Positions 30,386 through 54,200 of a stretch of DNA of 64,000 bases are shown here, one piece after another. The stretch is from IMG/VR virus record IMGVR_UViG_3300025834_000005, one strand, 5' to 3'. The stretch's first letter is position 1, and every line of letters starts with the position of its first letter. The DNA comes from a virus. The notes under the pieces are model-generated. The model had not been told where the DNA came from, did not search any database, and saw only the letters and a program-made list of their open reading frames with translations. Position numbers and translations under genes: made by a program.

Positions 30386-30751
30386 ATGCTGATTAATAGA
30401 AAAGAAAAACTAAATGAGGATGGTACAATAGGATACATCGAATCGGTCTTCAATTCAGGAAATGTTATGAAAACAACATACTTTCCAGCTGATAATAAGC
30501 TATATATAGCGTTTAACAGAGGCGAAACATATAGTTATGCCAACGTATTGAATGAGCTGTATAATACATTTGAAAAGGCTGAATCTCAAGGCGTATTCTT
30601 CTTTAAAACCTTTAACAAGAATTCAAAATATCCGTCACGAAAGGAATTTACACTTTACCCAACTGAGGTGAAAGAGATAAAAGAAGAGATTAAGCAAATA
30701 ATTGAAGACCATAGTGGCGACGAAATGTTAATTACTGAGGGTGATGACTAA
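30386..30751 (+). CDS. KTSC-domain protein
   Basis: IESVFNSGN...LYIAFNRGETYSYANVLNELYNTFEKAESQGVFF fits the KTSC pattern. The ATG at 30386 lies just downstream of the TACCTTTG -7 box. The track start at 30341 is a TTG that is itself the -33 element. Confidence 0.5.
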   Translation: MLINRKEKLNEDGTIGYIESVFNSGNVMKTTYFPADNKLYIAFNRGETYSYANVLNELYNTFEKAESQGVFFFKTFNKNSKYPSRKEFTLYPTEVKEIKEEIKQIIEDHSGDEMLITEGDD

Positions 30752-31085
30752 AACAAATAATATTGATTGGAAATCAAAGGGATTTTTTAAATTCTTACCC
30801 GAAGAAAAGCATAAATATGCTGCAAATGTGCTTAATTTTATGTTTGACCATATGCTTGAAAATTATGGTGAACATGGACATTCATATATTTTCGCATGTG
30901 TGTTGCGAATTATGACTGAATACATCTTGATAAAAAGCGAAGTTCTCGATATTATTGATGAACTCATGTCAGACGAATTTAGACGACAGGCATCAAATCC
31001 TGATTTATTTGGTATCGACGCAGAGGCTACATTCATCCGTGCATATTGCGAAAATAAGGTTAAACAATTAAAAAACATAAAATAA
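30741..31085 (+). CDS. Hypothetical protein (114 aa)
   Basis: ORF in the early block, with overlapping start. Confidence 0.5.
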   Translation: MMTKTNNIDWKSKGFFKFLPEEKHKYAANVLNFMFDHMLENYGEHGHSYIFACVLRIMTEYILIKSEVLDIIDELMSDEFRRQASNPDLFGIDAEATFIRAYCENKVKQLKNIK

Positions 31086-31408
31086 TGAATACTAAATATT
31101 ATACCGATTATCAAAACCCAGAAGGCGAGGATTGTGGAATGCTCATGCATGAAAAGCTGGATAGATTGAAACGAAACATGCAAAATGACCATCCATACAT
31201 ATTTAGCGATGTGATATATACTTTATTATCAGATAAAAGGGTTCATGTATCTGAATCGACTATTTTTGAGGTTGATGATGTAACAGTTACAGCCGATTTT
31301 CTTAATATTTATCAGATTAAATGGATGTTAAAAGAAGATAAGAGCGTGGTAATCTATAGCGTTCATTATGATACAGCACAAGACACATTAAGAGGATTTA
31401 TTTTTTAA
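31085..31408 (+). CDS. Hypothetical protein (107 aa)
   Basis: ATAATG overlap with the upstream stop. Confidence 0.5.
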   Translation: MNTKYYTDYQNPEGEDCGMLMHEKLDRLKRNMQNDHPYIFSDVIYTLLSDKRVHVSESTIFEVDDVTVTADFLNIYQIKWMLKEDKSVVIYSVHYDTAQDTLRGFIF

Positions 31409-31415
31409 ATAATAT

Positions 31416-31895
31416 ATGAAAGCAAAAATTTACATTAAGTATCACAACCAGAATTGTAAACTGGAATCACATGGTAATTGGATTGATTTAAAATCCGCCG
31501 AATCAGTAGTTATGCCAAAAGCTACGCATCGTTTAATTAACTTAGGCTTCGCATGTAAGCTCCCTAAGTATTTTCAGGCAAACATTGCACCAAGGTCTTC
31601 AACTTATAATAAGTTTGGATTAATACAGGCTAATCATTATGGTGTGGTTGACGGGCCTGATGCGACAAGCGATGGATATTCTGGTAATGACGACCACTGG
31701 AAATTTAGTGCATTATCTATGGGTACTGCTAAAGTGAATGAGGGTGATAGAATTTGTCAGTTTGAAATTAGACCAGCTATGTTCGCACCTTGGTATGTTA
31801 AATTGAAATGGATATTTACGAACGGAGTTAAGTTTATCGAAGTCGATGATCTTAAATCAAAAAGCAGAGGCGGATATGGTAGTACAGGAAAATAA
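31416..31895 (+). CDS. dut: dUTP diphosphatase (trimeric dUTPase)
   Basis: Motifs WIDLKSA, APRSSTYNKFGL, GVVDG...Y.G, GDRICQFEI and the C-terminal SRGGYGSTGK. Confidence 0.8.
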   Translation: MKAKIYIKYHNQNCKLESHGNWIDLKSAESVVMPKATHRLINLGFACKLPKYFQANIAPRSSTYNKFGLIQANHYGVVDGPDATSDGYSGNDDHWKFSALSMGTAKVNEGDRICQFEIRPAMFAPWYVKLKWIFTNGVKFIEVDDLKSKSRGGYGSTGK

Positions 31896-32100
31896 ACTTA
31901 GTCCTTTGAAGAGACTTAATCATAGTATTGATGATTTGAATAGCTCATTTAAACTTTATTGTATAAAAAAATATCCAGAAGACGAATTTCTACAGTCTAT
32001 GATTTCTGATATGTTATATTTCGAATCAAAAAGAGCATACTTGAAAGCAAGAAAACTTATAAAAAAAGGTAGGCGAATCATACACTCGAAATTAGGGTAA
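31876..32100 (+). CDS. Hypothetical protein (about 74 aa)
   Basis: ORF overlapping the dUTPase end. The internal ATG at 31876 is preferred to the track start at 31846. Confidence 0.4.
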   Translation: MVVQENKLSPLKRLNHSIDDLNSSFKLYCIKKYPEDEFLQSMISDMLYFESKRAYLKARKLIKKGRRIIHSKLG

Positions 32101-32141
32101 ATATTATATGATAAAATGTATAACAATTAATAATTATAAAA

Positions 32142-32606
32142 ATGAAGAAGAAAGATTGTAATTTTGGATTAGAGTGGGATTATAAAGGTATGCTGAGCAC
32201 ACCTTATCCTAATGGCAAGCAGAGTGATTGGAATCAGATATTGATGACCATCGTTAATCAAGTATCTGTTAACATTAATAAATTGTCATTTAGAGGCGGA
32301 GCAACTCATATTGAAATTAACTCAAAGCTATTACCATTGCTTAAAACTATGGAGTATTATAATGATGACGAAAAAATGCTGTCGAGTTATCATGTTGTGA
32401 TTAATGAGAAAACAGAAAAAGACACCATTATCATGTATAACAAGAGTTTGCTTGAGAATATTGACGCAATCCCAATTGTTAACGGTAATGAGGGCGAGAA
32501 TGGTATGATCACATTTACATTTTATAAACCATCTGATTGTAGTAAAGAAGACGTGATTACGTATATGCGGAATTTGTGCGGTTACATTGACATTAAAAAT
32601 TTTTAA
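32142..32606 (+). CDS. Truncated paralog of the major capsid protein C-terminal region (154 aa)
   Basis: By hand, WDYKGMLSTPYPNGKQSDWNQILMTIVNQVSVNINKLSFRGGATHIEINSKLLPLLKTMEYY aligns to MCP residues about 376-441, WDYNGLRRQTTPYMGTQKDWNQTLLTKINQISAQIHKSTLRGGASWIVVSPEVSAVMDDLEYF. Roughly 27 identities in about 64 columns, and similarity continues (LSSYHVVI / LSSRYLVY). Confidence 0.7.
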   Translation: MKKKDCNFGLEWDYKGMLSTPYPNGKQSDWNQILMTIVNQVSVNINKLSFRGGATHIEINSKLLPLLKTMEYYNDDEKMLSSYHVVINEKTEKDTIIMYNKSLLENIDAIPIVNGNEGENGMITFTFYKPSDCSKEDVITYMRNLCGYIDIKNF

Positions 32607-33794
32607 ATGAAAAGTTATCAAAAAGTATTGAAGAAAATTCTCAAGAAAGGCGTTGAGAAAGAAAGCGGCAGAGCTAACATGCCAAATACGATTGGCTTAT
32701 CGCATGCAGTGATACAAATGGATTTGCAAAAGGGCTTTCCATTGCTAACAACTAAGAAAATGCATTGGAAAGGCATTGTTCATGAATTGCTATGGTTTCT
32801 CAGAGGTGAAACAAATATAAAATATCTTATCGATAATAACTGTAATATTTGGAATGCCGACGCTTATCGCTGGTATTTGAAATATGCTGAACTAAATTCG
32901 CCTTCATCAACTAAAAGAAACATTTTGACTGATGGTGAAGATGGGACTGATCGAATTTTTACTATGGAAGAGTTTGTATTCGTGGTAAAAAATGTCGGCT
33001 CTAAAGGTTTACCTGTGTTTGAATATGAGTATGAAAAATATTATACCCTTGGTGATCTTGGTAAAGTTTATGGTCATCAGTGGAGAAATCAAAATGGTGT
33101 TGATCAGGTTGCTGAGGTATTGGACGGTTTGAAAAATAATCCGTATAGTCGTTATCACATTATCGATGGCTGGAATAAGGCAGATTTTAGAGAAATGGCT
33201 TTACCTCCTTGTCATTTATTGTATCAGTTTATCGTTAGACCTATTAGTACTGCGGAGAGAGTAAAAATGTATGATAATAATGGTGATATGATTCATCGTG
33301 TATTAGGTACAGCCATTTTCCCAGAGAATGTTTTGTATTTAGGCGAAAACAATTTATTCGAGGTTGAATACCCTGACCCTATTGGAATTGAGTATTCACA
33401 GGAAGATATCGATTATCTTGATGCCAAGAATATTCCTAAGTTCTATCTTGACTTGAATATGTATCAAAGATCGGTTGACACGGCACTTGGGTGTCCATAT
33501 AATATAGCATCAATGTCAATACTTCTAATGTTATTTGCAAAGGTGAACAATATGATTCCAAGTATAGCTACTTGGATTGGAGGTGATACACATTTATACG
33601 TGAATCATATAGAGACTGCTAAAGAACAGATAACAAGAGAGCCTTATCCGTTGTCAACGCTTAATATTAATAAGGAACTTAATTCTCTTGAAGATATATT
33701 AAGTTTATCTATTGATGATTTTGAATTGGTCGGTTATCAATCTCATCCAAAGATTAACTATGAGCTATTTGTGGGATTATCAAAAAAAGCATAA
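32607..33794 (+). CDS. thyA: Thymidylate synthase (ThyA) family enzyme, unusually long (395 aa)
   Basis: HELLWFLRGETN, VYGHQWR, ALPPCHLLYQF (catalytic Cys), MYQRSVDTALGCPYNIAS, GGDTHLYVNH. Two large insertions relative to E. coli ThyA as I remember it. Confidence 0.8.
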   Translation: MKSYQKVLKKILKKGVEKESGRANMPNTIGLSHAVIQMDLQKGFPLLTTKKMHWKGIVHELLWFLRGETNIKYLIDNNCNIWNADAYRWYLKYAELNSPSSTKRNILTDGEDGTDRIFTMEEFVFVVKNVGSKGLPVFEYEYEKYYTLGDLGKVYGHQWRNQNGVDQVAEVLDGLKNNPYSRYHIIDGWNKADFREMALPPCHLLYQFIVRPISTAERVKMYDNNGDMIHRVLGTAIFPENVLYLGENNLFEVEYPDPIGIEYSQEDIDYLDAKNIPKFYLDLNMYQRSVDTALGCPYNIASMSILLMLFAKVNNMIPSIATWIGGDTHLYVNHIETAKEQITREPYPLSTLNINKELNSLEDILSLSIDDFELVGYQSHPKINYELFVGLSKKA

Positions 33795-33795
33795 T

Positions 33796-34035
33796 ATGAG
33801 AAAAAGACGAGACGATGTTGAGGTTGCGATAGTTAACATATTATTATCTGAATCTAAAGAAACAGTATTTAACACTGTTTGTGATGACGAGGTTCTTAGC
33901 ATGGCTATCGATTCTCTTCTTGATGATCTTTACTCTAAAAATATCGAAGTCTTTTTTAGGGACAGGAATATAGTTATAACTGAAAACGGATATTATGTTG
34001 CTGTTTATCCAAAAGACCTTATAAAGGTTGAATAA
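33796..34035 (+). CDS. Hypothetical protein (79 aa)
   Basis: The ATG at 33796 is 1 nt after the thyA stop. The track's longer version overlaps thyA by 83 nt and is less likely. Confidence 0.45.
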   Translation: MRKRRDDVEVAIVNILLSESKETVFNTVCDDEVLSMAIDSLLDDLYSKNIEVFFRDRNIVITENGYYVAVYPKDLIKVE

Positions 34036-34037
34036 AT

Positions 34038-34277
34038 ATGATTCTAAGTATAATAATATTAATATTAGCGATAATAATATTATTGCTGATATTATTATTA
34101 TCAAAAACATTAAAATCAGCTTTAATATTATCGAGTAAGGAAAAAGATTTCATTAAGTTCGCTTTTGATATCTTCATTGACTATGGCGACACATTAGGAA
34201 TTCAGTCCGAAGATCAGCGTAAGTTAATAACAGCCGAACTTGAAAAGATAAAAACAAAACTGGACAAACAACAATAG
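34038..34277 (+). CDS. Small membrane protein (N-terminal TM helix)
   Basis: MILSIIILILAIIILLLILLLSK followed by a charged helical tail. Last gene before a strong terminator. Confidence 0.5.
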   Translation: MILSIIILILAIIILLLILLLSKTLKSALILSSKEKDFIKFAFDIFIDYGDTLGIQSEDQRKLITAELEKIKTKLDKQQ

Positions 34278-34292
34278 TTTGTCCAGTTTTTT
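34260..34292. terminator. Bidirectional intrinsic terminator ending the nucleotide-metabolism block
   Basis: ctggacaaac-N7-gtttgtccag followed by tttttt. On the minus strand it is followed by TTTTGTTTTT. Confidence 0.75.
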
Positions 34293-38655: not shown

Positions 38656-40302
38656 TTAGTTTAAATCGCCAATTCCGAATGTCTGAAGACCATCGCAGAA
38701 GATTCTACCGAAGTAACGGTTAAGAACCATTTTCTTAGCATAACGAGTGATGATACCACGTATTGGGGTAAAATCGAATGGGTTATACATGACAGGGGTC
38801 AACTGCATAGGAACATAAGGAGCATAGATATAACCAGTTTCAAGGATACTTGTTCCTTTGTGACCGATAAGGATCGTGTTTGCTGGTGCATATGGGTCAC
38901 GATACACAAGGTAACGTGAAGATAATGTACCTACTTTTTCGATACCCATGTTATACTTATCCTGTTCTGGATCAGCGTTTGACACGTGGAAATACTCTAA
39001 GTCATCCATTACGGCACTAACTTCTGGAGAAACAACAATCCAAGATGCACCACCACGAAGGGTTGATTTGTGAATCTGAGCAGAGATTTGGTTGATCTTG
39101 GTTAACAAGGTCTGATTCCAATCTTTCTGTGTTCCCATGTAAGGAGTTGTCTGACGTCTAAGACCGTTATAGTCCCAACGAGCAGTCCATGCTGCACCTC
39201 TACGAAGGTCACGAAGAATTTCTCTATCGATTTCAGCAGCCATTTGTTCTGACAATAAAGCAGTCAATTCAGCTTCGGCATCGATGTTGTGGAATGCGCT
39301 AACGTCCTGTGCAAGTTCTGGAGTCCACTGTGATCTCATTTTACGAGTCTCAACAGAAACAGTTACCTGATCAAGTACGAAAGTAACTTCAGCCATACGA
39401 GAGTCTTCTTCAAGATCGCTGTATGTTTTGTAAGTGTAAGTGAAAGATACACCTGATGTGGCAGCAGACAAAGCTTGGTAACCATCTGCACCTGGGTATG
39501 TTAAGTCAACAATAAGTTCGATACCGCCGTTTTTGTCAACGATAGCCTGACCGTATTTCTGAACCTTAACATTAAAAGGTAGGGTCATACCACTTGCAAT
39601 ACTTTCAGAGCCAAAAGCTACTGGTGCATTGAAGGCAACGTTTGAAGTGATCTTCAAACCTGCAAGGAATGATTCTGTATCCTGAGCAGCACCTTTAGGC
39701 CCGATCAATTTACCTTGCTCTGTAGCAGTGAAACCACTGAAACGAACGCTTACATATTTATCACCAGCGTTATAAGTACCAGCTGCAACGCCAGTTACGT
39801 TAGTGATTGCTCCCTTAGAATTGTCAAACAATGAAGTTCCTTCGTCACCATAAGACTGTGCATAGAATGCATCGTACAATGAGCGATCTTCAAACTGAGT
39901 TCCTGTACCATCGGTTTTGTGCTCAGCAGCATTTGTGTAAGCTCCCATAGGTGCTTTATGAACTGAGGTAGATGTTTTAGGATTGATGTAGTACAATTTA
40001 CCGATAGGTAAATTCAATGCCTGAACACTAACGATGTCGTTAGCAAGCAATTTTGCGAACACCCTACGGATAACAGGGAACGCTACAGTCTCAAACTGAC
40101 CTGATGATGCTGAATCGGTTGATTCGTTGATCATATAAGACAACTGATTCTCAAATAACTGAGCACAGTTTTCTTTTACGTGTCCGTCAAGACCCTTAAG
40201 TAGACCGATTTTTTCCCAACGGTTAGTGGTGATTTCACGTTGTTCTCTTAGCTGTTTCAAGCCAATATTTCCAACTTCATTCGATTCTGTTAAAAATCCC
40301 AT
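38656..40302 (-). CDS. Major capsid protein (T4 gp23-like, HK97 fold)
   Basis: LFENQLSY, FPVIRRVFAKLLANDIVSVQ, ETRKMRSQWTPELAQDVSAFHNIDAEAELTALLSEQMAAEIDREI and GYIYAPYVPM parallel the conserved gp23 blocks. Follows the protease and scaffold genes. Confidence 0.85.
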   Translation of the reverse strand: MGFLTESNEVGNIGLKQLREQREITTNRWEKIGLLKGLDGHVKENCAQLFENQLSYMINESTDSASSGQFETVAFPVIRRVFAKLLANDIVSVQALNLPIGKLYYINPKTSTSVHKAPMGAYTNAAEHKTDGTGTQFEDRSLYDAFYAQSYGDEGTSLFDNSKGAITNVTGVAAGTYNAGDKYVSVRFSGFTATEQGKLIGPKGAAQDTESFLAGLKITSNVAFNAPVAFGSESIASGMTLPFNVKVQKYGQAIVDKNGGIELIVDLTYPGADGYQALSAATSGVSFTYTYKTYSDLEEDSRMAEVTFVLDQVTVSVETRKMRSQWTPELAQDVSAFHNIDAEAELTALLSEQMAAEIDREILRDLRRGAAWTARWDYNGLRRQTTPYMGTQKDWNQTLLTKINQISAQIHKSTLRGGASWIVVSPEVSAVMDDLEYFHVSNADPEQDKYNMGIEKVGTLSSRYLVYRDPYAPANTILIGHKGTSILETGYIYAPYVPMQLTPVMYNPFDFTPIRGIITRYAKKMVLNRYFGRIFCDGLQTFGIGDLN

Positions 40303-42527: not shown

Positions 42528-45500
42528 ATGGCAGTCAATCTAATCGATCCAAACGCAGTAAATAACTCAAACACTATAAACGGAAGTCCTGTATATGAGG
42601 ATATGCATATTTTCGCCAAGCTAACAGCTGTTGGCAGAGATAGGACAATTATAACTATTAATGGTAATTCTGAGAGTATTGTCACTGAACACGGTAAAAC
42701 TGAGGGTGTTAATTTCTTAGGTGCTAATAGTGAATATAATTTTACCACTGATTGGTATGATGGAAGTACTGTTAATAATAATCAGGAGGCATTCGGTATT
42801 ACATCAATAAAAACAGTTATAAACTCATCATTCATTCCGCAAGTAAACATAAAATTTGTCGACGTCAGAGGATTATCATTTTTTAATAATGATGACTCTC
42901 CATATAGAATGATGTTTGATTTTCCGCCACCAATCTTTAATCTAACTATTAAGGGCTATTACGGTAAAGCCTTAACATATCAATTACATTTGGTTAAATA
43001 TACAAGTGAGTTTCAATCCGATTCAGGTAACTTTGTTATTGATGCTGATTTTGTGGCTTTAACGTATGCTCCATTATCGGACGTATTGTTACAATATACA
43101 GCGCATTTTCCTATGATGAATCCTGATGCTGTATTAACTGGCGATGTTAATAAAGAACCTATCAATACATTAGACCTTATAGTTAAGACACGTAGATTAT
43201 ATACTAAGTTGCCTGAGAAGATAAAGAATAGTGTTGAGAATATTAATTTTACAGAGGCTTCAAGAAGAATAGACATTTGTTATGAGGCTAATGAGTTTCT
43301 GTCGAACTATGTTATCGATGATGTTCTTACTGGTGTCGGCAGTCCGAAACTATATACATATAAAGAGTCCAACCCAACCTCAACGATTAAAACATTAGTA
43401 CCTATAAATAAGATCAGTAATTTTAATAGATATAGTACGGTTGATAATCATTTCCTTATCGGCTATGAAACTGGAAGCAGCGGAGGTACGACTAATTTTA
43501 ATATTCCTAATTATCAGGATTTTAAAAACAATACATATGCAATGAAAAACGCATTATTGGTTTATGGTAATAAACTCGCTAATGTTGTTGATTTATCGGG
43601 AGCATCTAAAGATATTAATTTAGTTGGTATGCCAGTTGTATTACAGGCTCAAAGTATTGAATATCCGAACACTCCTAAAGTGGTTGAGTTCGCATGTCTT
43701 GATATCACTAAAGCGTATAAACAGTTGACGAATAATTTTACTGTTAATCGTAATAAAAAGGAACTTGCAAAAACAGCTTTAAATAAATCGATTAATAATA
43801 TCGTATACAGTTTTCTTGGAATGGAACCCACTATATATAACGTATTTAAGATTATTTTAAATGACGTTGACGTGTTCTTCAATGAAATTAGAAAAACAGC
43901 CTATAACGCTCAGGGTATATATTCTGGGGCAGATGCTGTTAGTTTGATGGGTGATAATGCTGGAATAAGCAAAAGAGAGAAAAGCGGCAAGATCATATTT
44001 CCATTTCCTCAGATTATAAAAAATAACGAAAGGGCAACACCTCAAATGTATGAAGGTTCGTCAAGTATAGAATTTCCTGAACTCGATTTAATTGACAGAT
44101 ATATTTCAACCTATTTAAAGGTTACTAAGCAAATGAAAAAAATGGTTAGTAAGGAAAATTTATCAGAAGATGGAAATAATACTTGGATACCCTTCACATC
44201 TGCTGATAGTAGTTTGCCAGCTAATAGTAGTTCCGAAAATCCTTATGCATCATCATCAATAGATGTTCTATTCTCAACGCTATTAAAAAGGTACTATATA
44301 TTGTCACAGAATGTGTTGAAAAACGAAATGCTTAATGATCCTAAATATGTTGATTTATACGCTAAGTCTGAAGCTATAAATGCTTGTGATGCTATCACTG
44401 ATGCTCTTTTCACATCACAAATGCAGACAGCGTCAGATAATTATTCAGTTAATATAAATAATTTCTTTGATAAGATTTCTAAAAACGCTGAGCTTAATAG
44501 CTTGTTTACTTTAACTCAGAACTATGCTGGGTTGGACGATATTGAATTCAATGGTCATCATTTTGTAACATCACGAATGAAAGATACTGTTTATGATGGT
44601 TTTGAGATTATTGAAAGTAATGCGTCGCTTGAACCACGTAAGGAAACTGCTAACGGCGTCGATCCTATAACTCTATTTATAAAAGATGCTGAAACTCATA
44701 TATGGGAAAGAATCTGGAAAAAGAAAAGTAATACCGAATCAGGCAAATATATTTATACTGTTGATAATCTATTATTAGTTAAAGACACTAACGGAGATTC
44801 TGAGGACGAAACTAAATTTATTAAATCATCAAGTTCTGATATTGAATTCCTTACTATTGAGGATGATACCCTTAATATGAATTTGGTTGATGATTTATTA
44901 ATTAATGGAAATATTCTTTATGGCGATTCACAGATTTCGAAAAGCAAAGCCGAGTCGCTGAACATTCATACTGATTTTTATAGAACATGGTCGAATATTC
45001 TATCACTAAAGGGTGATATTATTGTTTCTAATGTTAATATAAGTGATGATGTTAAGGCTTTGATGTATTTGTCTAATTTCGGCAATACTTGTGGGATGTT
45101 TAATAAGTATCGTAATTATCTTAATGATTATGTATTTAGCAGAACCTCAATAATTGAAATGCCTAAATTTGTATCGGCATATATAGGTGCGATACTAACC
45201 ATTTCAAAAAGCCAAACGCTTATAGACGAGCTTAAGTCATTATATGCTGATCAGACAATGGCTGGAAATTTAATATTTGCTGATATACATGACTGTGTCG
45301 CTTATTTAAACACAACGTCAAAGTCTAAGTTTGAAACAAAATACACTAACTTTAAGACAAGTGATTTTGGCAAACTTAACACAGATATTATGCAAATAGT
45401 ATCAAATATTCAAACACAGAATATTGATAACACATATGACTTGAATGATGCTTATTATCGTAAAATGACTTCAGATAAAAATAAGTTTGCGTGTTTAATG

Positions 45501-47645
45501 GATCGTGAGTACTTCTTAAATTTTGATGAAATAACATTTAAAATGACAGACTTTAGCACCGATCAGCCAGCATATAAGTCTATATCATCGTTACAGAGTG
45601 GCACATCAGCACAATTTGTCAATTCATTTTTTAAAACATTTTTTATAAAAATGGCTGATATTCTTGTCTCAAGAAAAAAGGAGATTGTATCAGAGGATGC
45701 ACAATTTAAAAGCATGGCTAATGATTCGGATATTGTTAACCAAATGTATTACTCATTCAAGAATATTAACGATAAATGGATTTCGGGCTTACCAGCTAAG
45801 ATTGACGGCGGATATCCTTTTAATTTTAAAAGCGGTAAGCTTATCGATATGTTTGCATTTGTAGATAGAAATATGAGTCCTATCGGCGACACTATTATAA
45901 ACCCACAGGTTTTAGTAGACTTATTCGATAATGACGAGACTACGATATTTACAGTGTTGAGCACATTGCTATCCGTAAACGGCTTTGAGTTCTTTCCTTT
46001 ACAGAATTTTATGGTTGCAAATGATAAAACGAATTGGGAAGATTGTTTTAAAATTAGTAATACAACCATACAACCATCAAGTCCTACATATATTTGTATG
46101 TATGTAGGTGGATCGTCAAATTATTTAACCAACAATAGAAATTATGCTAATGACGGTATTGACGATATGGAAAAGGATTTCTATCCTTCAAGTAATTTAA
46201 ATTTAAATTCATATCCTAACAGTGATATGATGAATAATAATAAATCTATAAACTGGAATAATGTAAACGGATTTAAAGTTAGATTCGGCGCACAGAACCA
46301 GAGTATGTTTAAAGATATTAAGATTGATAGCAAAGAATTTCCTGAAACAAATGAGTCTTTGCAAATTTTAGCTAAACTTGCTGGGGATAATACAAAGATA
46401 GCACCAGTACCAAAAAGTCAAAGTCTTTATAACCTTTATGAAAATCGTGCCTATAAAGCAACGGTGTCTGGTTTGGGCAATGTTATGATTCAACCTACAC
46501 AGTATTTTCAGCTTGAAAATGTTCCAATGTATAATGGCGTTTATTTAATACTTGGCGTTGAGCATAATATAACTGAAAATAGTATGACAACCGAATTCAA
46601 TGGAACTAAGATATTGAAATACCCGATTCCAAGGGTAACTCAATCATCAACAGCTTTCGGATATGGCGGCGGAGACTCTGAAGAAACAGCCGTAGGTTTG
46701 GGTAAAGATAATGTTGGTGGAAATGGTACGCCTCCAGCGAATAGCAGCGATTTGCTATCAGGTGAAAAAAGTAATTATCAATCATTGTATACATTTAAAA
46801 TCGGCAATGGGTTTGTGCCTTTAATGCCCAAAGGCGAAGCATATATACGAAGCATATGTTCACAGCATGGTAACTCGTCATTTACTGGTAAGGGCAACCC
46901 TTTATATGTTGGTGATCCTCATCCTAATGTGACATGGGTTGCTAACCCCACATATACGAAAAGGACTTATGATGTCAGTGGTAATGTTGAATTATCATCA
47001 TCTGTTATAAATATGACAACTGGTAATATAGCTGACGCATTGATCTCAATGTATAATTATTACGCCAAACAATACAGTCTCGATGCTAATGTTATAGCCG
47101 CTCAACAATTTCGTGAATCGGCATATAAGCTGTGGGTTTATAATACTTATGAGGGTAATTTAAATGCTATGGGTTTACCTCAATTCTTGAGGGGAACTGT
47201 TACAGAGATGATTATTAATAATTCATATAATGTTTATCCTAAATTTACTAATGCAGAGATTGCAAAAATAACAAATGGCTTATCAAATCCTCATAATTTA
47301 TATGCTGTTGATGAGGATAAACGAGTTATTTTACAAAATGTGATGGATAATCCAGAGATCATGATAAAAGCGCAGTGTCGTTACATGAAAGCTATTTCCG
47401 AAAAATGTAATAACGTTACAGCTTCAACAATATTCTCGTATTATTTAGGGCCTGCTGTCTCTGCACCGACATATGCTGATACCACAAGAAAAGCACAATC
47501 AGTAGCTTCTGTTAATAAGGATAATATTCCTAAAGCTATTTCATATGTTGCATCGATATTCAGGGATTTGAATAAAAATTTCTTTGAACCTAATGTCTTA
47601 AAATTGAATGAGATTGCCGACGCACATCAATCCAATCAGGCATAA
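42528..47645 (+). CDS. Giant (1705 aa) virion-associated protein with a C-terminal lytic-transglycosylase-like domain
   Basis: Single uninterrupted ORF. The C-terminal AAQQFRESAYK....NAMGLPQF....FSYYLGP resembles the SLT motifs E-S / G-L-x-Q / A-Y-N-x-G. The N-terminal 1400 aa is unassigned. Confidence 0.6.
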   Translation: MAVNLIDPNAVNNSNTINGSPVYEDMHIFAKLTAVGRDRTIITINGNSESIVTEHGKTEGVNFLGANSEYNFTTDWYDGSTVNNNQEAFGITSIKTVINSSFIPQVNIKFVDVRGLSFFNNDDSPYRMMFDFPPPIFNLTIKGYYGKALTYQLHLVKYTSEFQSDSGNFVIDADFVALTYAPLSDVLLQYTAHFPMMNPDAVLTGDVNKEPINTLDLIVKTRRLYTKLPEKIKNSVENINFTEASRRIDICYEANEFLSNYVIDDVLTGVGSPKLYTYKESNPTSTIKTLVPINKISNFNRYSTVDNHFLIGYETGSSGGTTNFNIPNYQDFKNNTYAMKNALLVYGNKLANVVDLSGASKDINLVGMPVVLQAQSIEYPNTPKVVEFACLDITKAYKQLTNNFTVNRNKKELAKTALNKSINNIVYSFLGMEPTIYNVFKIILNDVDVFFNEIRKTAYNAQGIYSGADAVSLMGDNAGISKREKSGKIIFPFPQIIKNNERATPQMYEGSSSIEFPELDLIDRYISTYLKVTKQMKKMVSKENLSEDGNNTWIPFTSADSSLPANSSSENPYASSSIDVLFSTLLKRYYILSQNVLKNEMLNDPKYVDLYAKSEAINACDAITDALFTSQMQTASDNYSVNINNFFDKISKNAELNSLFTLTQNYAGLDDIEFNGHHFVTSRMKDTVYDGFEIIESNASLEPRKETANGVDPITLFIKDAETHIWERIWKKKSNTESGKYIYTVDNLLLVKDTNGDSEDETKFIKSSSSDIEFLTIEDDTLNMNLVDDLLINGNILYGDSQISKSKAESLNIHTDFYRTWSNILSLKGDIIVSNVNISDDVKALMYLSNFGNTCGMFNKYRNYLNDYVFSRTSIIEMPKFVSAYIGAILTISKSQTLIDELKSLYADQTMAGNLIFADIHDCVAYLNTTSKSKFETKYTNFKTSDFGKLNTDIMQIVSNIQTQNIDNTYDLNDAYYRKMTSDKNKFACLMDREYFLNFDEITFKMTDFSTDQPAYKSISSLQSGTSAQFVNSFFKTFFIKMADILVSRKKEIVSEDAQFKSMANDSDIVNQMYYSFKNINDKWISGLPAKIDGGYPFNFKSGKLIDMFAFVDRNMSPIGDTIINPQVLVDLFDNDETTIFTVLSTLLSVNGFEFFPLQNFMVANDKTNWEDCFKISNTTIQPSSPTYICMYVGGSSNYLTNNRNYANDGIDDMEKDFYPSSNLNLNSYPNSDMMNNNKSINWNNVNGFKVRFGAQNQSMFKDIKIDSKEFPETNESLQILAKLAGDNTKIAPVPKSQSLYNLYENRAYKATVSGLGNVMIQPTQYFQLENVPMYNGVYLILGVEHNITENSMTTEFNGTKILKYPIPRVTQSSTAFGYGGGDSEETAVGLGKDNVGGNGTPPANSSDLLSGEKSNYQSLYTFKIGNGFVPLMPKGEAYIRSICSQHGNSSFTGKGNPLYVGDPHPNVTWVANPTYTKRTYDVSGNVELSSSVINMTTGNIADALISMYNYYAKQYSLDANVIAAQQFRESAYKLWVYNTYEGNLNAMGLPQFLRGTVTEMIINNSYNVYPKFTNAEIAKITNGLSNPHNLYAVDEDKRVILQNVMDNPEIMIKAQCRYMKAISEKCNNVTASTIFSYYLGPAVSAPTYADTTRKAQSVASVNKDNIPKAISYVASIFRDLNKNFFEPNVLKLNEIADAHQSNQA

Positions 47646-50529: not shown

Positions 50530-51822
50530 TTATTTTTGCCTCATACCACTAAATAACCATGAATTTGCGATATAAGGATTCAATGGTGAAGAGCTATTCG
50601 GCGAAATTTTTGGCACAGGCTTTTCACCCCTTTTCTCACCTATGGCTTTTATATCATTTGCTGATAATATGGATTTAAGCATACTTTCAGTTGTGCTGTT
50701 AGATTGTTTAAATCTTGCCATATCGAAATTAATAACAAATAAGCCAATGGCTAATCCCATAATAGAATCATCATGGAATGACCTCTTATGGTCAGCAACA
50801 CGATTACCAGCAACTGTTACGAATGTCTTCAACTCTGTTAATAATCTCAATGATCTTATAATAATATCTTCTAAATGTATTGATCTCTGTAACTCTAATA
50901 CCACTGATGCTCTGTTGTTTCCAATGAAAAAACCTGGAATTAAGTCAACATAAGATACTGCACCGTCAGACATTGTTTTCTGACCTTTTTTGATATAGCC
51001 AGCTAAACGATCTCTCGATGGTTTATGTGATACTTCAGCATAATGAACATTATCATAACCGATTTCAAGAAGTTTCTCAACAGCTTGTACACCGTATCCA
51101 CCAGTGATATCCACAACAGCATAAGCATTATTATAGGCTTTGCCATATTGATACACAATTTCAGCTAAACCTTGAGGTACAATCTTACCATAATATTCAG
51201 CGACTTGTTCTATTTTGAATTTTTTTAGCTTAACCTCTTTCTCTCTACCGTTCTTTACAATTATCTTTTTTTCTATATACTCCTTGCGTTTGAGGATGTT
51301 AACGGTTGAATTATCTTCTCCGTGACCTGGTGATGCATCGACAGCTATAACATATTGTTCTTCTGGAATAGGGTCTTCGAATATCCACATATTCTTATCC
51401 ACATATTCTTGACGGATAGGCGTTCTGATTTCATTATCTTGGATTCTTTTTAGATATTCTTCATCAATAAAGTTATCTCCTGATCCTAAAAATGAACAGT
51501 TATGATTTGAAAAGCCATTTGCAAAATAATCACAGTCCTTTGAATCTATTATATCAAAGAAATCGCAACCATCGATAATTTCAACAGATTTAACAAAATA
51601 ATCGCCATCTATAGTTGATACGTATGAAATATTTGGAACCAATGATTTAACATACATGTTTTTTCCATTGGCTAAAAATATATGATCGTCGCTCACCGTG
51701 ATCGTCATCTCATTTTCCAACGTGACTTTATACCCTATGTTTTTATGAGACTTACTAATCCCAGCGAAATCAACGAAGTCACCAGATGAGTTTAATATTT
51801 CATATTCTAAATTTATCAGCAT
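50530..51822 (-). CDS. terL: Terminase large subunit, C-terminal half: intein C-fragment (108 aa) + nuclease domain
   Basis: Starts with the Hint block B MTITVSDDHIFL and ends the intein at DYFANGFSNHN|CSFLGSG. The extein then carries VIAVDASPGHGED, VVDITGGYG and HDDS, RNaseH-like terminase nuclease motifs. Confidence 0.8.
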   Translation of the reverse strand: MLINLEYEILNSSGDFVDFAGISKSHKNIGYKVTLENEMTITVSDDHIFLANGKNMYVKSLVPNISYVSTIDGDYFVKSVEIIDGCDFFDIIDSKDCDYFANGFSNHNCSFLGSGDNFIDEEYLKRIQDNEIRTPIRQEYVDKNMWIFEDPIPEEQYVIAVDASPGHGEDNSTVNILKRKEYIEKKIIVKNGREKEVKLKKFKIEQVAEYYGKIVPQGLAEIVYQYGKAYNNAYAVVDITGGYGVQAVEKLLEIGYDNVHYAEVSHKPSRDRLAGYIKKGQKTMSDGAVSYVDLIPGFFIGNNRASVVLELQRSIHLEDIIIRSLRLLTELKTFVTVAGNRVADHKRSFHDDSIMGLAIGLFVINFDMARFKQSNSTTESMLKSILSANDIKAIGEKRGEKPVPKISPNSSSPLNPYIANSWLFSGMRQK

Positions 51823-53105
51823 TTTATAAAGTTAATACATTCGTTGATTATCTCAACTGGTTTTTTATTTCTATTATATTCATCTGACGTTACTATCATT
51901 ATTTCATAGCCCATATCCTTCAATATGTCATATCTAATTTTATCCTTTTTTGAGTTATGCCAATAGTTTCCATTATATTCTATGATCTTGTTTTTGTGCT
52001 TAAAATCCAACATCATAATAATATTCTCATGATTATAAATTTCAGGAATTCTAAGTACGTATTCCTTATTTAAATCGTGAAAATATGTATCGTCTTTATT
52101 GTCCATCAAGTTATAAACGTTAAAAAAAAGTTCTTGAGATATTTTACTAAATCTGTTTGCTTTTAATAGCGACAGGGTTTCCATTTTATTGTTAACATAG
52201 TTTTTATATTTTTCTTCGCCGCTATTTCCATATTTTTTTTCAAACCATTTCAAACTATTAGTGCTATTCTCATGTACATTAGCCTTTCTATTTTTATGAT
52301 ATTGTTCCCAATCAGTACCATAAGTCGATTTAAACCATTCAGTGGATGGGTATTTTGGTTCGCATTTGGCGCAAATTATATTAAACACGCCATTAACGAA
52401 TTTCCAATGCTTTAGGTTTTTATGAATATCGCAATATGTATTAATTTTATTAACTAAAATATATAGCCTATGTGAAAACTTATTTAAGTTTTTATTAAGA
52501 TTATCCATGTGTGACGTGTGATAATAAAGACTTGCAAAGAGTTTAGTATCAGCTGCTATTAATTTTCTGTTTCCAGATTTTCCGAGATACTTGTAATAAT
52601 CATTTTGTAATAATTCAATAGTTTCATCCTTGGTATAGAATTCTTTAATAATATTTATTTTATTTGCTGTTAATTCCCATGATTTTTTTGCTGAGTTTTT
52701 TGCCTTCTCAATAAAATCGCCAGATATTCTATCATATACTAATATTTTACCATCCTTCGTTATTTTATCTATTTCGCCATTATATTTTTTTAGATATAAT
52801 AATTTAGGATATAATGATCTATTCATTGAGCATGTTTGTATTTCCTTTGTATGAATATCGATATCCTTTAGGAGATTCGGGAAATCTTTATTAAACATTC
52901 GGCTTCCACCCTGAATTTTATATTTTTCAATATATATAGTAATTATTTTATTAATTAATTTTTTTCGCATCTGATCATTTAGATATAAATACGTAGACGA
53001 ATTGTTTTGTTCTTTTAATTTATCATATAAATCCTCAATTCTAATTTTTTCGATTATGCCTGTTTGTTTATTTCTTATTGTTAGCAAAGCCTCGCCAAAA
53101 ACGCA
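51499..53105 (-). mobile_element. Intein-type intervening element in terL (Cys1 codon 53103-53105 to the Asn before Cys+1 at 51496-51498), split across two ORFs and carrying an endonuclease-like domain
   Basis: Boundaries are from my translation: TGC at 53103-53105 begins CVFGE. HN is followed by TGT at 51496-51498. The joined exteins read ...KKIAQEIL-CSFLGSGDNFIDEEY. Confidence 0.7.
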
Positions 53106-54200
53106 TAGGATTTCCTGTGCGATTTTTTTCATATCGCCGTTGGCATCACGAACCTGTTCTTCGAACCAAGGTGATGAGGCTTCCCAGCCATCATCCATCA
53201 TTTTTATTCTCTGAGCATCTTCCCAACCCTCATCAACTATCTTAATTTCGGTGTCTTTCCCTTTATTTTTAAGCCATACGAGTCCTTTATTGTATCTTGG
53301 GTCGTTATACCACCACAACTCAATAGCACAGAAGTTATTCTTACCTTCCTTTCGTCTTGCACCTTCGAAATTCTTATAAAAAACAGGGTCTAATCCTGAT
53401 GGGGTGCTAACCATAATAGCTCTACCCCCTGTACTTAATGCAGGCTTTGCAGCTGTCCAAAACTTATCTGATTTTTCAGTCCAAGCAGTTTCATCCCAGA
53501 ATAATAACGTTGGCGTAGTACCACGAAGTCCACTCTTTGCTGAGAATGCACCCAAGGCTGAATTATTATCATAACGTTTTAATTTCTGAGTATCTTTATA
53601 ACTTTTATCAGTCCCAGCACCTTTACCTGTTTTTGGCTTAAGCCAATCAGGACAGCCCTCAATAAATTCTACAACATCATTCATCAACTCATCACGAGCT
53701 GTTTCAAGTTTATCTGCGACAATGGCAGCGGTTCTGTTACTATTAAACATAACATACCATGCGATATACGCACACGTAGCCGTTGAAATACCAGCCTGTC
53801 TATATTTATTAGCAATGTTAAATCTCTCATCGAGATATGATTGTATTAATCTTTTTTGGAATACGAATAATTTAAATGGCACAATTCGTCCAGCCACACC
53901 CTGCGTCTGGTCAAATATTGTTAAATAAGTTTCGATAAAATACATTGGACTTGATACACATCTGATAATCTCACATTCCTGTTCAGACATGTTTAATTCA
54001 CTTGCTTTTTTTATCGATCCATTTGCAGTGATTATAATGGGTTCTACTTTTCCAGAAGATTTACGTAAGTCTTTAGCCAGCTTTCTCTGTTCCTCTTTCT
54101 TTTGTAAGTCGGAAGCACTGAATGCTGCTACTGCTGGTATATGTTCGGGGAATTGATTGTCATCAATTTCTGACGAATCTTCTGATTTTTTTACTGCCAT
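51816..54200 (-). CDS. terL: Terminase large subunit, N-terminal ATPase half (365 aa), fused to an intein N-fragment and a Vsr/PD-(D/E)XK-like endonuclease region
   Basis: KYRQAGISTA (Walker A-like), LLFWDETAW (Walker B), MVSTPSG. Then ...AQEIL|CVFGEALLTIRNKQTGIIEKIRIEDLYDKL (Hint block A). The ORF ends MMLDFKHKNKIIEYNGNYWHNSKKDKIRYDILKDMGYEIMIVTSDEY. Confidence 0.8.
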   Translation of the reverse strand: MAVKKSEDSSEIDDNQFPEHIPAVAAFSASDLQKKEEQRKLAKDLRKSSGKVEPIIITANGSIKKASELNMSEQECEIIRCVSSPMYFIETYLTIFDQTQGVAGRIVPFKLFVFQKRLIQSYLDERFNIANKYRQAGISTATCAYIAWYVMFNSNRTAAIVADKLETARDELMNDVVEFIEGCPDWLKPKTGKGAGTDKSYKDTQKLKRYDNNSALGAFSAKSGLRGTTPTLLFWDETAWTEKSDKFWTAAKPALSTGGRAIMVSTPSGLDPVFYKNFEGARRKEGKNNFCAIELWWYNDPRYNKGLVWLKNKGKDTEIKIVDEGWEDAQRIKMMDDGWEASSPWFEEQVRDANGDMKKIAQEILCVFGEALLTIRNKQTGIIEKIRIEDLYDKLKEQNNSSTYLYLNDQMRKKLINKIITIYIEKYKIQGGSRMFNKDFPNLLKDIDIHTKEIQTCSMNRSLYPKLLYLKKYNGEIDKITKDGKILVYDRISGDFIEKAKNSAKKSWELTANKINIIKEFYTKDETIELLQNDYYKYLGKSGNRKLIAADTKLFASLYYHTSHMDNLNKNLNKFSHRLYILVNKINTYCDIHKNLKHWKFVNGVFNIICAKCEPKYPSTEWFKSTYGTDWEQYHKNRKANVHENSTNSLKWFEKKYGNSGEEKYKNYVNNKMETLSLLKANRFSKISQELFFNVYNLMDNKDDTYFHDLNKEYVLRIPEIYNHENIIMMLDFKHKNKIIEYNGNYWHNSKKDKIRYDILKDMGYEIMIVTSDEYNRNKKPVEIINECINFIKC

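Follow-up and report, generated by a model that had tools for sequence, protein, structure and literature searches.

Why should a virus keep, among the genes of its nucleotide metabolism, a small gene whose product resembles the last third of its own capsid protein? The question is raised by a 154-amino-acid (aa) open reading frame (ORF) that starts with ATG and occupies positions 32142–32606 of the plus strand in a 64,000-nucleotide stretch of the IMG/VR virus record IMGVR_UViG_3300025834_000005; this whole stretch is referred to here as the window. The source phage is uncultured and known from metagenomes as a contig of about 328 kb, the G+C content of the window is 33%, and no close relative of it was found among 50,697 phage records. 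The original prediction, made from the sequence alone, described the ORF as a truncated paralog of the C-terminus of the major capsid protein (MCP) encoded in the same window. The analysis described here indicates that the ORF is very probably functional, its product being a free-standing axial (A) domain of the gp23-type capsid fold, and that it belongs to a large family of its own. The features that carry this result are the following.

32142..32606, plus strand: small A-domain gene, 154 aa (ORF listing, 257 homologous clusters, AlphaFold2 model with a predicted local distance difference test score, pLDDT, of 94, and Foldseek matches)
32154..32444, plus strand: codons 5–101, with sequence-detectable MCP homology (BLASTP 1e-15; hhalign 5e-33; shuffle z=23-25)
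32445..32603, plus strand: codons 102–154, the family-specific C-terminal half (family consensus and secondary structure of the model; pairwise comparison with the MCP non-significant)
38656..40302, minus strand: gp23-type MCP gene, 548 aa (Pfam Gp23, PF07068, 9e-72; phrog_138, 1e-67)
38857..39198, minus strand: MCP codons 369–482, the A-domain segment homologous to the small ORF (tblastn 39177..38986; family-profile hmmsearch E=2e-30; hhalign)

The homology between the two products was established first at the sequence level. The window MCP, which scores 243 bits against Pfam Gp23, was aligned by BLASTP through its residues 376–439 with residues 12–74 of the ORF (27/65 identities, 44/65 positives, 3 gap positions, E=1e-15), reproducing the 27 identities that had been counted by hand. 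The Smith-Waterman score of the pair is 143 and was reached by none of 1000 shuffles of the ORF (mean 32.8, standard deviation 4.7, maximum 66; z=23). When a profile of the family was compared by hhalign with a profile of 21 MCPs, ORF residues 5–101 were matched to MCP residues 369–482 with a probability of 99.9% and E=5e-33, so that the range of about 376–485 first proposed was essentially right. This span contains the blocks WDY, TPY, DWNQ..RGGA, EY(Y/F), LSS and TI(I/L) of the hand alignment. The (L/I)LE block lies outside it: residues 76–154 of the ORF alone are no better than shuffles in pairwise comparison with the MCP (z about 0) and, because of this, the match beyond residue 101 comes from the fold only. 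At the DNA level the similarity between the ORF and the MCP gene is confined to a single stretch of 64 nucleotides with 72% identity, and the relationship is therefore old. No Pfam family matched the small ORF at E<=1, which places it below the whole-protein Gp23 model. Homology with the A-domain of gp23-type MCPs is seen in both sequence and fold, and the rest of the HK97 fold is unmatched.

The AlphaFold2 prediction, obtained with a 40-member family alignment that contained no full MCP and without the use of templates, reached a pLDDT of 94 and a predicted template modelling score of 0.86; from the single sequence the pLDDT was 41 and the model unusable. The model consists of one alpha/beta domain. 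It contains, in order, a strand (residues 8–13), a short helix (16–19), a long helix (27–49), a strand (56–59) and a helix (61–68), followed by two strands (83–87 and 95–99), a helix (101–105), two further strands (110–114 and 124–128), a helix (135–144) and a last strand (146–152). In terms of sequence, codons 5–101 encode the strand carrying WDY, the long helix DWNQ..N..S..I, the RGGA motif, a strand, a short helix, the EYY motif and two more strands. Codons 102–154 encode a variable hairpin, a helix and the last strand with its conserved terminal motif LxGxIxIxN(Y/F), and in the model they complete the A-domain sheet.

Superposition on known structures matched the model to HK97-fold MCPs only, and all top matches of a Foldseek search of the PDB were HK97-fold shell proteins. 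The T4 gp23 entries 9mkb, 8gmo, 7vrt and 6uzc were recovered with E about 1e-4, a probability of 1.00 and template modelling scores, normalised to the query, of 0.56–0.59; further matches included the capsid protein of the jumbo phage S6, HK97 gp5, gp24 (1yue) and encapsulins, and a search of BFVD returned MCPs again. The alignments extend up to 180–199 columns, a length that fits a collinear match of the model to the MCP C-terminal third of about 180 residues with some 30 residues deleted. The family profile found no capsid protein among the PDB sequences, so the link to solved capsids is visible by fold only. As modelled, the product is a stand-alone A-domain devoid of the N-arm, the E-loop, the spine helix and the long hairpin of the P-domain. 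These are the elements that hold subunits and capsomers together, and the product therefore cannot be a shell subunit, as had been anticipated from the length of the fragment.

The ORF is not an isolated case. An exhaustive HMMER search over 1.84 billion cluster representatives retrieved 257 protein clusters at E<=1e-3 (91 at E<=1e-10), mostly of 140–200 aa, most of which align with practically the whole ORF (about residues 1–154); typical MCPs are absent from the best 150 matches. A profile scan of 232 collected proteins gave 149 domain hits that cover the whole family profile. The family consensus begins with WDYxGW and, after 8–10 residues, TQxDWNQTLITKINQxSAxIHKxSLRGGAxxI, continues with LEYY, LxGRYxVxxD and IxVY, and ends, beyond a variable stretch, with LxGxIxIxNY. 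The window member is somewhat divergent: its residue 33 is Ile, whereas Thr occupies this position (DWNQ-T-L) in all MCPs and in about 90% of the family, and it also departs from the consensus at K37I, A43V, Q44N and H46N.

None of the annotation sources checked gives a name to these proteins. A word-indexed protein search with the ORF alone returned the ORF itself only, Pfam gave zero matches for it, NCBIfam had no match to the family and PHROGs contains no model of it, 2 of 105 members matching the MCP family phrog_138 only. A few other members carry partial precomputed PF07068 hits. The matches in PADLOC were marginal and partial (P0153 with E1-E2 models at E about 4e-4, P0021 with mad8 at 0.0065). 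Among cultured phages, megablast with the ORF region and tblastn with the ORF found zero matches, and tblastn with a consensus-like member against the 50,697 phage records found a single capsid gene and no family member. A scan of viral and genome collections with the pattern [DN]WNQTLxT returned MCP genes only, the pattern being common to MCPs, and revealed no further neighbourhood of the family. The contigs that carry any one tested member were identical at the DNA level and offered zero substitutions for a ratio of non-synonymous to synonymous changes. The small proteins form a large, conserved and so far unnamed family, and the large phages that carry it are known from metagenomes only. 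The literature searched, including the comparative survey of jumbo phages in PMC7824862, gave no account of an MCP A-domain existing as a stand-alone protein; what is new is a free-standing, domain-sized, exapted derivative of the gp23-type capsid protein, the gp23-type MCP itself being already known.

A neighbour-joining tree was calculated for 220 sequences, namely 25 MCPs, 7 members in which a spine helix follows the A-domain, and 188 further small proteins; the BLOSUM62 distances were taken over the roughly 100 columns that these share. Every one of the 25 MCPs fell into a single tight clade, in which the sole other entrants are two MCP-like fragments. Distances from the window MCP are 0.13–0.38 to other MCPs and at least 0.47 to the small proteins. 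The nearest neighbours of the ORF are small proteins (0.55–0.59); the MCP of its own genome, at 0.68, holds rank 98, and hence the ORF was not copied from that gene recently. The description as a truncated paralog of this genome's MCP does not hold, since about 100 other small proteins are closer to the ORF in the shared region. The split from the MCPs is old, and the small family evolves faster: mean column conservation is 0.75 in the MCPs and 0.47 in the small family. The family thus shares with gp23-type MCPs (PF07068) a homology of about 100 residues, a set of invariant residues and a fold that superposes on the T4 gp23 A-domain, and differs from them in having only the axial domain, a third of the length, a location outside the head module, a faster evolution and a separate clade.

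These results bear directly on the proposal, also part of the original prediction, that the ORF is a degenerating remnant of an MCP or of a gp24-like vertex gene, a duplicated fragment that has stayed open by chance. The fragment does cover the last third of the MCP only, and its pairwise similarity fades past residue 75. On the other hand, hundreds of intact homologues of the same length preserve both N- and C-terminal motifs, the predicted fold is compact and confident, the genome's own MCP is not the closest relative, the gene is tightly coupled to thyA and zero MCP-like sequence flanks it in any frame. Such a non-functional remnant is most improbable, and this reading can be regarded as effectively refuted.

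A comparison of the conserved columns showed what part of the MCP has been preserved. Fifteen positions are conserved at >=0.8 in both the MCPs and the small family (W, D, Y, Q, W, N, Q, T, L, T, N, S, I, Y and Y), corresponding to W-D-Y in the first strand, Q..WNQTL.T..N..S..I in the long helix and two Tyr residues. The motifs FHV, DPYxPA and GHK, invariant in MCPs, are not retained. The balance leans slightly towards the small protein being an interface mimic that binds either a host sensor or the MCP itself.

A rationale for the first of these partners comes from a 2026 preprint on bacterial immune receptors. Avs7, Avs8 and Avs10 bind the A-domain face of MCP monomers that forms pentons and hexons, with additional contacts to the P-domain and the E-loop, and MCPs activate Avs7 and Dsr1 (bioRxiv 10.64898/2026.01.04.697583). 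The binding of the A-domain interface by Avs7, Avs8 and Avs10 gives a concrete basis to the idea, already among the roles listed in the original prediction, that the small protein is a decoy for host MCP sensors, which is put forward here tentatively as the leading reading, although a doubtful one. The protein would be a soluble mimic of the capsomer-forming face of the unassembled MCP monomer, unable to polymerise into a shell, and would occupy competitively the host factors (receptors of the STAND/Avs or Dsr1 type) that read new MCP monomers through their A-domain interface. The P-domain and E-loop contacts, and the geometry required for activation of the receptor, would not be supplied by the mimic, and capsids could then be produced without triggering abortive infection. 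The receptors Avs7, Avs8, Avs10 and Dsr1 are the known host proteins that bind the part of the MCP preserved by the family; they are sensors of the host and not phage proteins, and the MCPs tested with them came from coliphages (bioRxiv 10.64898/2026.01.04.697583).

A functional analogy, and only that, is offered by DSAD1, a phage protein that inhibits DSR2 in competition with its trigger, the tail tube, and so occupies the sensor of a defence system directed at a structural virion protein. No homology between DSAD1 and the trigger is described (PMC11087589), whereas the candidate inhibitor proposed here would be derived from the trigger itself. The text of a catalogue of 268 anti-defence proteins contains no mention of capsid or HK97 (10.1101/2025.06.06.658234).

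Several points weigh against a decoy. An isolated A-domain might itself activate an MCP sensor, in which case early expression would be harmful; this could happen because Avs proteins recognise conserved core folds (bioRxiv 10.64898/2026.01.04.697583). The conserved residues may be required by the fold instead of forming a surface, the family is absent from the cultured phages searched, and its neighbours in nucleotide metabolism, replication and DNA or sugar modification, together with a fusion to dCMP deaminase in the member P0232, would fit an unrelated role equally well.

If the partner were instead the MCP itself, the free A-domain could bind newly made MCP of its own phage in the manner of a neighbouring capsomer subunit, keeping it soluble or unable to assemble until scaffold, portal and protease are ready, or setting the timing or amount of capsomers. 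This role of holdase or assembly regulator, akin to the chaperone or regulator of the original prediction, is the main rival of the decoy and, like it, possible but doubtful. The residues retained by the family are exactly those invariant in MCPs, and there is a precedent in the co-chaperonin gp31 of T4, a small MCP-specific folding factor encoded next to cd among early and nucleotide-metabolism genes, outside the head cluster. T4 gp31 has a GroES-like fold with no MCP homology and acts through GroEL, so that the likeness lies in the small size and the location away from the head genes and the difference in the fold, which here is an MCP-derived A-domain. The family evolves much faster than the MCP to which such a factor would have to be matched, and none of the cultured gp23-type phages searched has it, which means that it is not generally required for gp23-type assembly.

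The surroundings of the gene in the window agree with the position originally described, with the dUTPase gene upstream and thyA directly downstream, both co-directional, and outside the head operon.

31416..31895, plus strand: dUTPase gene, co-directional upstream neighbour (Pfam dUTPase 2.6e-6; phrog_135 6e-16)
32607..33794, plus strand: thyA, thymidylate synthase of 395 aa with insertions (Pfam Thymidylat_synt 3e-83)
34256..34290, both strands: bidirectional terminator-like hairpin with a perfect 14-bp stem and T-runs on both strands (terminator scan)

The TAA stop codon of the small ORF directly abuts the ATG of thyA, and one ORF of 74–84 aa lies between the dUTPase gene and the small ORF. 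These genes belong to a plus-strand metabolic island (30386..34277) that contains, in order, a KTSC-domain gene, two small genes, the dUTPase gene, the 74–84-aa ORF, the small ORF, thyA and two 79-aa genes, and that is closed by the hairpin. The thyA product itself is unusual: its 395 aa match the 266-position Pfam profile in two stretches separated by two large insertions, with the motifs DLGxVYGxQWR and PPCH kept. A scan of the window for sigma-70 promoters gave 31 sites, against 31.1 expected from shuffles. The -7 promoter consensus of Bacteroidota is TAnnTTTG; one strand of the window contains 71 copies of it and the other 36, where each would be expected to have about 47, and the motif does not discriminate in such AT-rich DNA. 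The sites in and around the ORF block are mostly inside coding sequence and place no promoter, so that neither scan confirms the host-type, non-late promoter assumed for the block in the original prediction.

The window is otherwise mostly structural, with genes for sheath, MCP, scaffold, prohead protease and portal and a TerL-type ATPase ORF. The small ORF is about 6 kb away from the MCP, scaffold and protease genes and on the opposite strand. A profile search found one copy only of the small family in the window, and tblastn and the profile search found no second full-length MCP-like ORF besides the MCP; no counterpart of MCP residues 1–368 or other MCP-like sequence flanks the small ORF in any frame. 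A role in the virion or prohead, as an internal protein, plug or decoration built from the A-domain, could be considered given the capsid-protein fold, the richness of the window in structural genes and a motif like that of the MCP N-terminal propeptide in some members. It is improbable: the gene belongs to an oppositely oriented metabolic block, and its relatives lie at a distance from head genes, in regions devoted to replication or metabolism.

The same holds across the neighbourhoods examined, in which a head-module location was seen in 0 of 9 (window included). In the eight neighbourhoods of relatives the family genes are co-directional with their immediate neighbours, which are given below by locus.

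L002: nucleoside 2-deoxyribosyltransferase, GIY-YIG, DnaJ and ClpP genes
L004-L006: small genes, DnaJ and ClpP genes
L007: gp32, family member, UvsX-like recombinase, 5'-3' exonuclease and DnaB
L009: 2OG-Fe oxygenase, SIR2, family member, phosphoribosyl pyrophosphate synthetase and sigma factor
L092: two DNA methyltransferases, family member, NlpC/P60, then a split ThyA
L093: sugar-modification cluster
L094: glycosyl- and methyltransferase cluster
L105: contig of 3 kb carrying small genes and a GIY-YIG gene

Near the family member, genes for ClpP and for a full DnaJ, with its J domain, zinc finger and C-terminal domain, are found at L002 12523-14732 and L004 11480-14038. The gene downstream of the member in L007 had been considered as a split TerL-like partner, and this was ruled out since it encodes a UvsX-like recombinase. 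In L092 (10320-12549) thymidylate synthase is split into ORFs of 184 and 245 aa with two small ORFs between them, an arrangement that suggests an intervening element. Homing-endonuclease-like genes of the GIY-YIG/NUMOD3 type lie within a few kb of members in L002, L006, L009, L092, L094 and L105, in the last of which one is directly downstream of the family member. Their proximity could be due to chance in such genomes or be a hint of how MCP pieces move.

These neighbourhoods can be interpreted in two further ways. The phage DnaJ and ClpP genes, placed 1–3 kb from members in two lineages, would suit a factor that holds new MCP, a core assembly function for which synteny with the head genes would be expected; here the position varies. 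Alternatively, the A-domain fold may have been reused in a function unrelated to the capsid, for instance as a ring-forming scaffold or adaptor in nucleotide, DNA-modification or replication complexes. This is a rather unlikely explanation for which one can invoke the dut and thyA genes, the nucleoside deoxyribosyltransferase, gp32, UvsX and DnaB, the DNA methyltransferases, the split ThyA and the sugar-modification clusters, as well as the dCMP deaminase of P0232 and the tandem forms with two (P0002) or three (P0057) units, a frequent product of ring-forming modules. No neighbour is recurrent, however, and genes of these kinds make up most of the non-structural part of giant phage genomes in any case, which makes the association weak. 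The fusion in P0232, in which the deaminase is joined to the first ~50 residues of the domain, is one weak and partial match (E=5e-5) on a 2.3-kb contig. Moreover, the retention of MCP-invariant polar residues and of additional MCP pieces would be left unexplained.

Inspection of the architectures revealed that the A-domain unit has been repeatedly rebuilt. It is present twice in tandem in P0002, the closest relative of the ORF (40% identity), and three times in P0057. In P0220 a weak Arc-like ribbon-helix-helix N-terminus precedes two A-domain units. The motif LKGLxGHV of the MCP N-terminal (propeptide) region appears before, between or after A-domain units in P0153, P0151 and P0101, and in P0151 MCP residues 2–58 are matched between two units. 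A spine helix (DAExELTxMLSE..IDxEI) follows the A-domain, and is thus permuted with respect to the MCP, in P0174, P0080, P0140, P0159, P0202 and P0149. The members of this subgroup share an N-terminal ILLRNRK and a C-terminal NRRxLLL and are the nearest to the MCPs in the tree (P0174 corresponds to L009 2212-2793). P0100 carries pieces of the spine helix and of YDPMNFTP at its C-terminus; it had been considered as a relative of the scaffold and shows zero similarity to the scaffold protein of the window.

In P0015, P0021 and P0126 the A-domain unit is fused N-terminally to a TerL-type ATPase domain (phrog_2, 8e-14); an example is found at L011 369-1733. This ATPase domain is not accompanied by a nuclease domain and has 21% identity with residues 108–275 of the window TerL. 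The fused proteins may be the real terminases of their phages, with an A-domain as N-terminus, or paralogues. The idea that the domain is an inactive TerL-like decoy was dropped, as its KDRQTGIS matches KYRQAGIS of the window TerL, with K, R, Q, G and S invariant in 4 of 4 aligned sequences. The Walker A region of T4 gp17 reads SRQLGKT, and K.RQ.G.S is a deviant Walker A typical of the lineage.

The propeptide-region motif or the spine helix of some members could dock onto assembly partners, and the Arc-like N-terminus of P0220 could be that of a regulator, both of which would favour a role in MCP holding or assembly control; a single architecture would be expected of such a core factor, and the one observed is plastic. 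A variable position, rapid divergence and domain shuffling are typical of accessory conflict genes and not of core morphogenetic ones. The accessory-like distribution, the rapid divergence and the multivalent tandem forms would also be compatible with a weapon against competing phages, in the form of a dominant-negative poison of capsomers that would cap the MCP of co-infecting relatives or make it assemble wrongly, comparable to the capsid-derived restriction factors Fv1 and enJS56A1 of vertebrates. By keeping the most conserved MCP motif such a poison would acquire a broad reach, but the same motif is invariant in the MCP of the phage itself, and the phage would have to escape its own poison through timing or degradation; this weapon seems improbable. 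Returning to the decoy for host sensors, it is conceivable, if doubtful, that with this family an anti-defence protein derived from its own trigger is seen for the first time, saturating receptors like Avs7, Avs8, Avs10, Dsr1 or CapRel without activating them, with the tandem and TerL-fused forms acting as multivalent or dual decoys.

The gp24 vertex protein of T4, to which the ORF had been likened, has the whole HK97 fold, assembles into pentamers and is encoded beside gene 23. The small family resembles it in being a second MCP-derived gene in a gp23-type phage, with 1yue among the structural matches, and differs from it in being a single domain (154 aa, compared with the 548-aa MCP) that is not adjacent to the MCP gene and cannot make the inter-capsomer contacts.

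HK97-fold capsid proteins are a hallmark of tailed phages and are known almost only as shell subunits. Here the axial domain has become a protein in its own right, which has persisted over a long time, has reached many large uncultured phages and has been rebuilt into repeats and fusions, and the part preserved is the capsomer-forming face that several bacterial immune receptors read on MCP monomers. The family is a testable candidate for a trigger-derived decoy or, alternatively, for a new control of capsid assembly, and whichever of the two readings proved true, phage-host conflict or capsid assembly would gain a mechanism. As a minimum, a few hundred hypothetical proteins can now be assigned a fold and an origin.

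Some other features of the window deserve mention. A 1705-aa ORF (42528..47645, plus strand), for which PHROGs gave no match at E<=1e-5, adjoins the gene of the prohead protease. The terminase ORF (51816..54200, minus strand; 794 aa) contains the T4-type ATPase domain at residues 134–370 only (Pfam Terminase_6N, 5.6e-10), with the deviant Walker A KYRQAGIST. The remaining ~420 residues include no terminase nuclease domain; they start after an intein-like ...EILC and end with the endonuclease-like motif EYNGNYWH. An overlapping ORF of 430 aa (50530..51822, minus strand) has no Pfam match. The terminase gene may have been interrupted by a mobile element or be of unusual construction.

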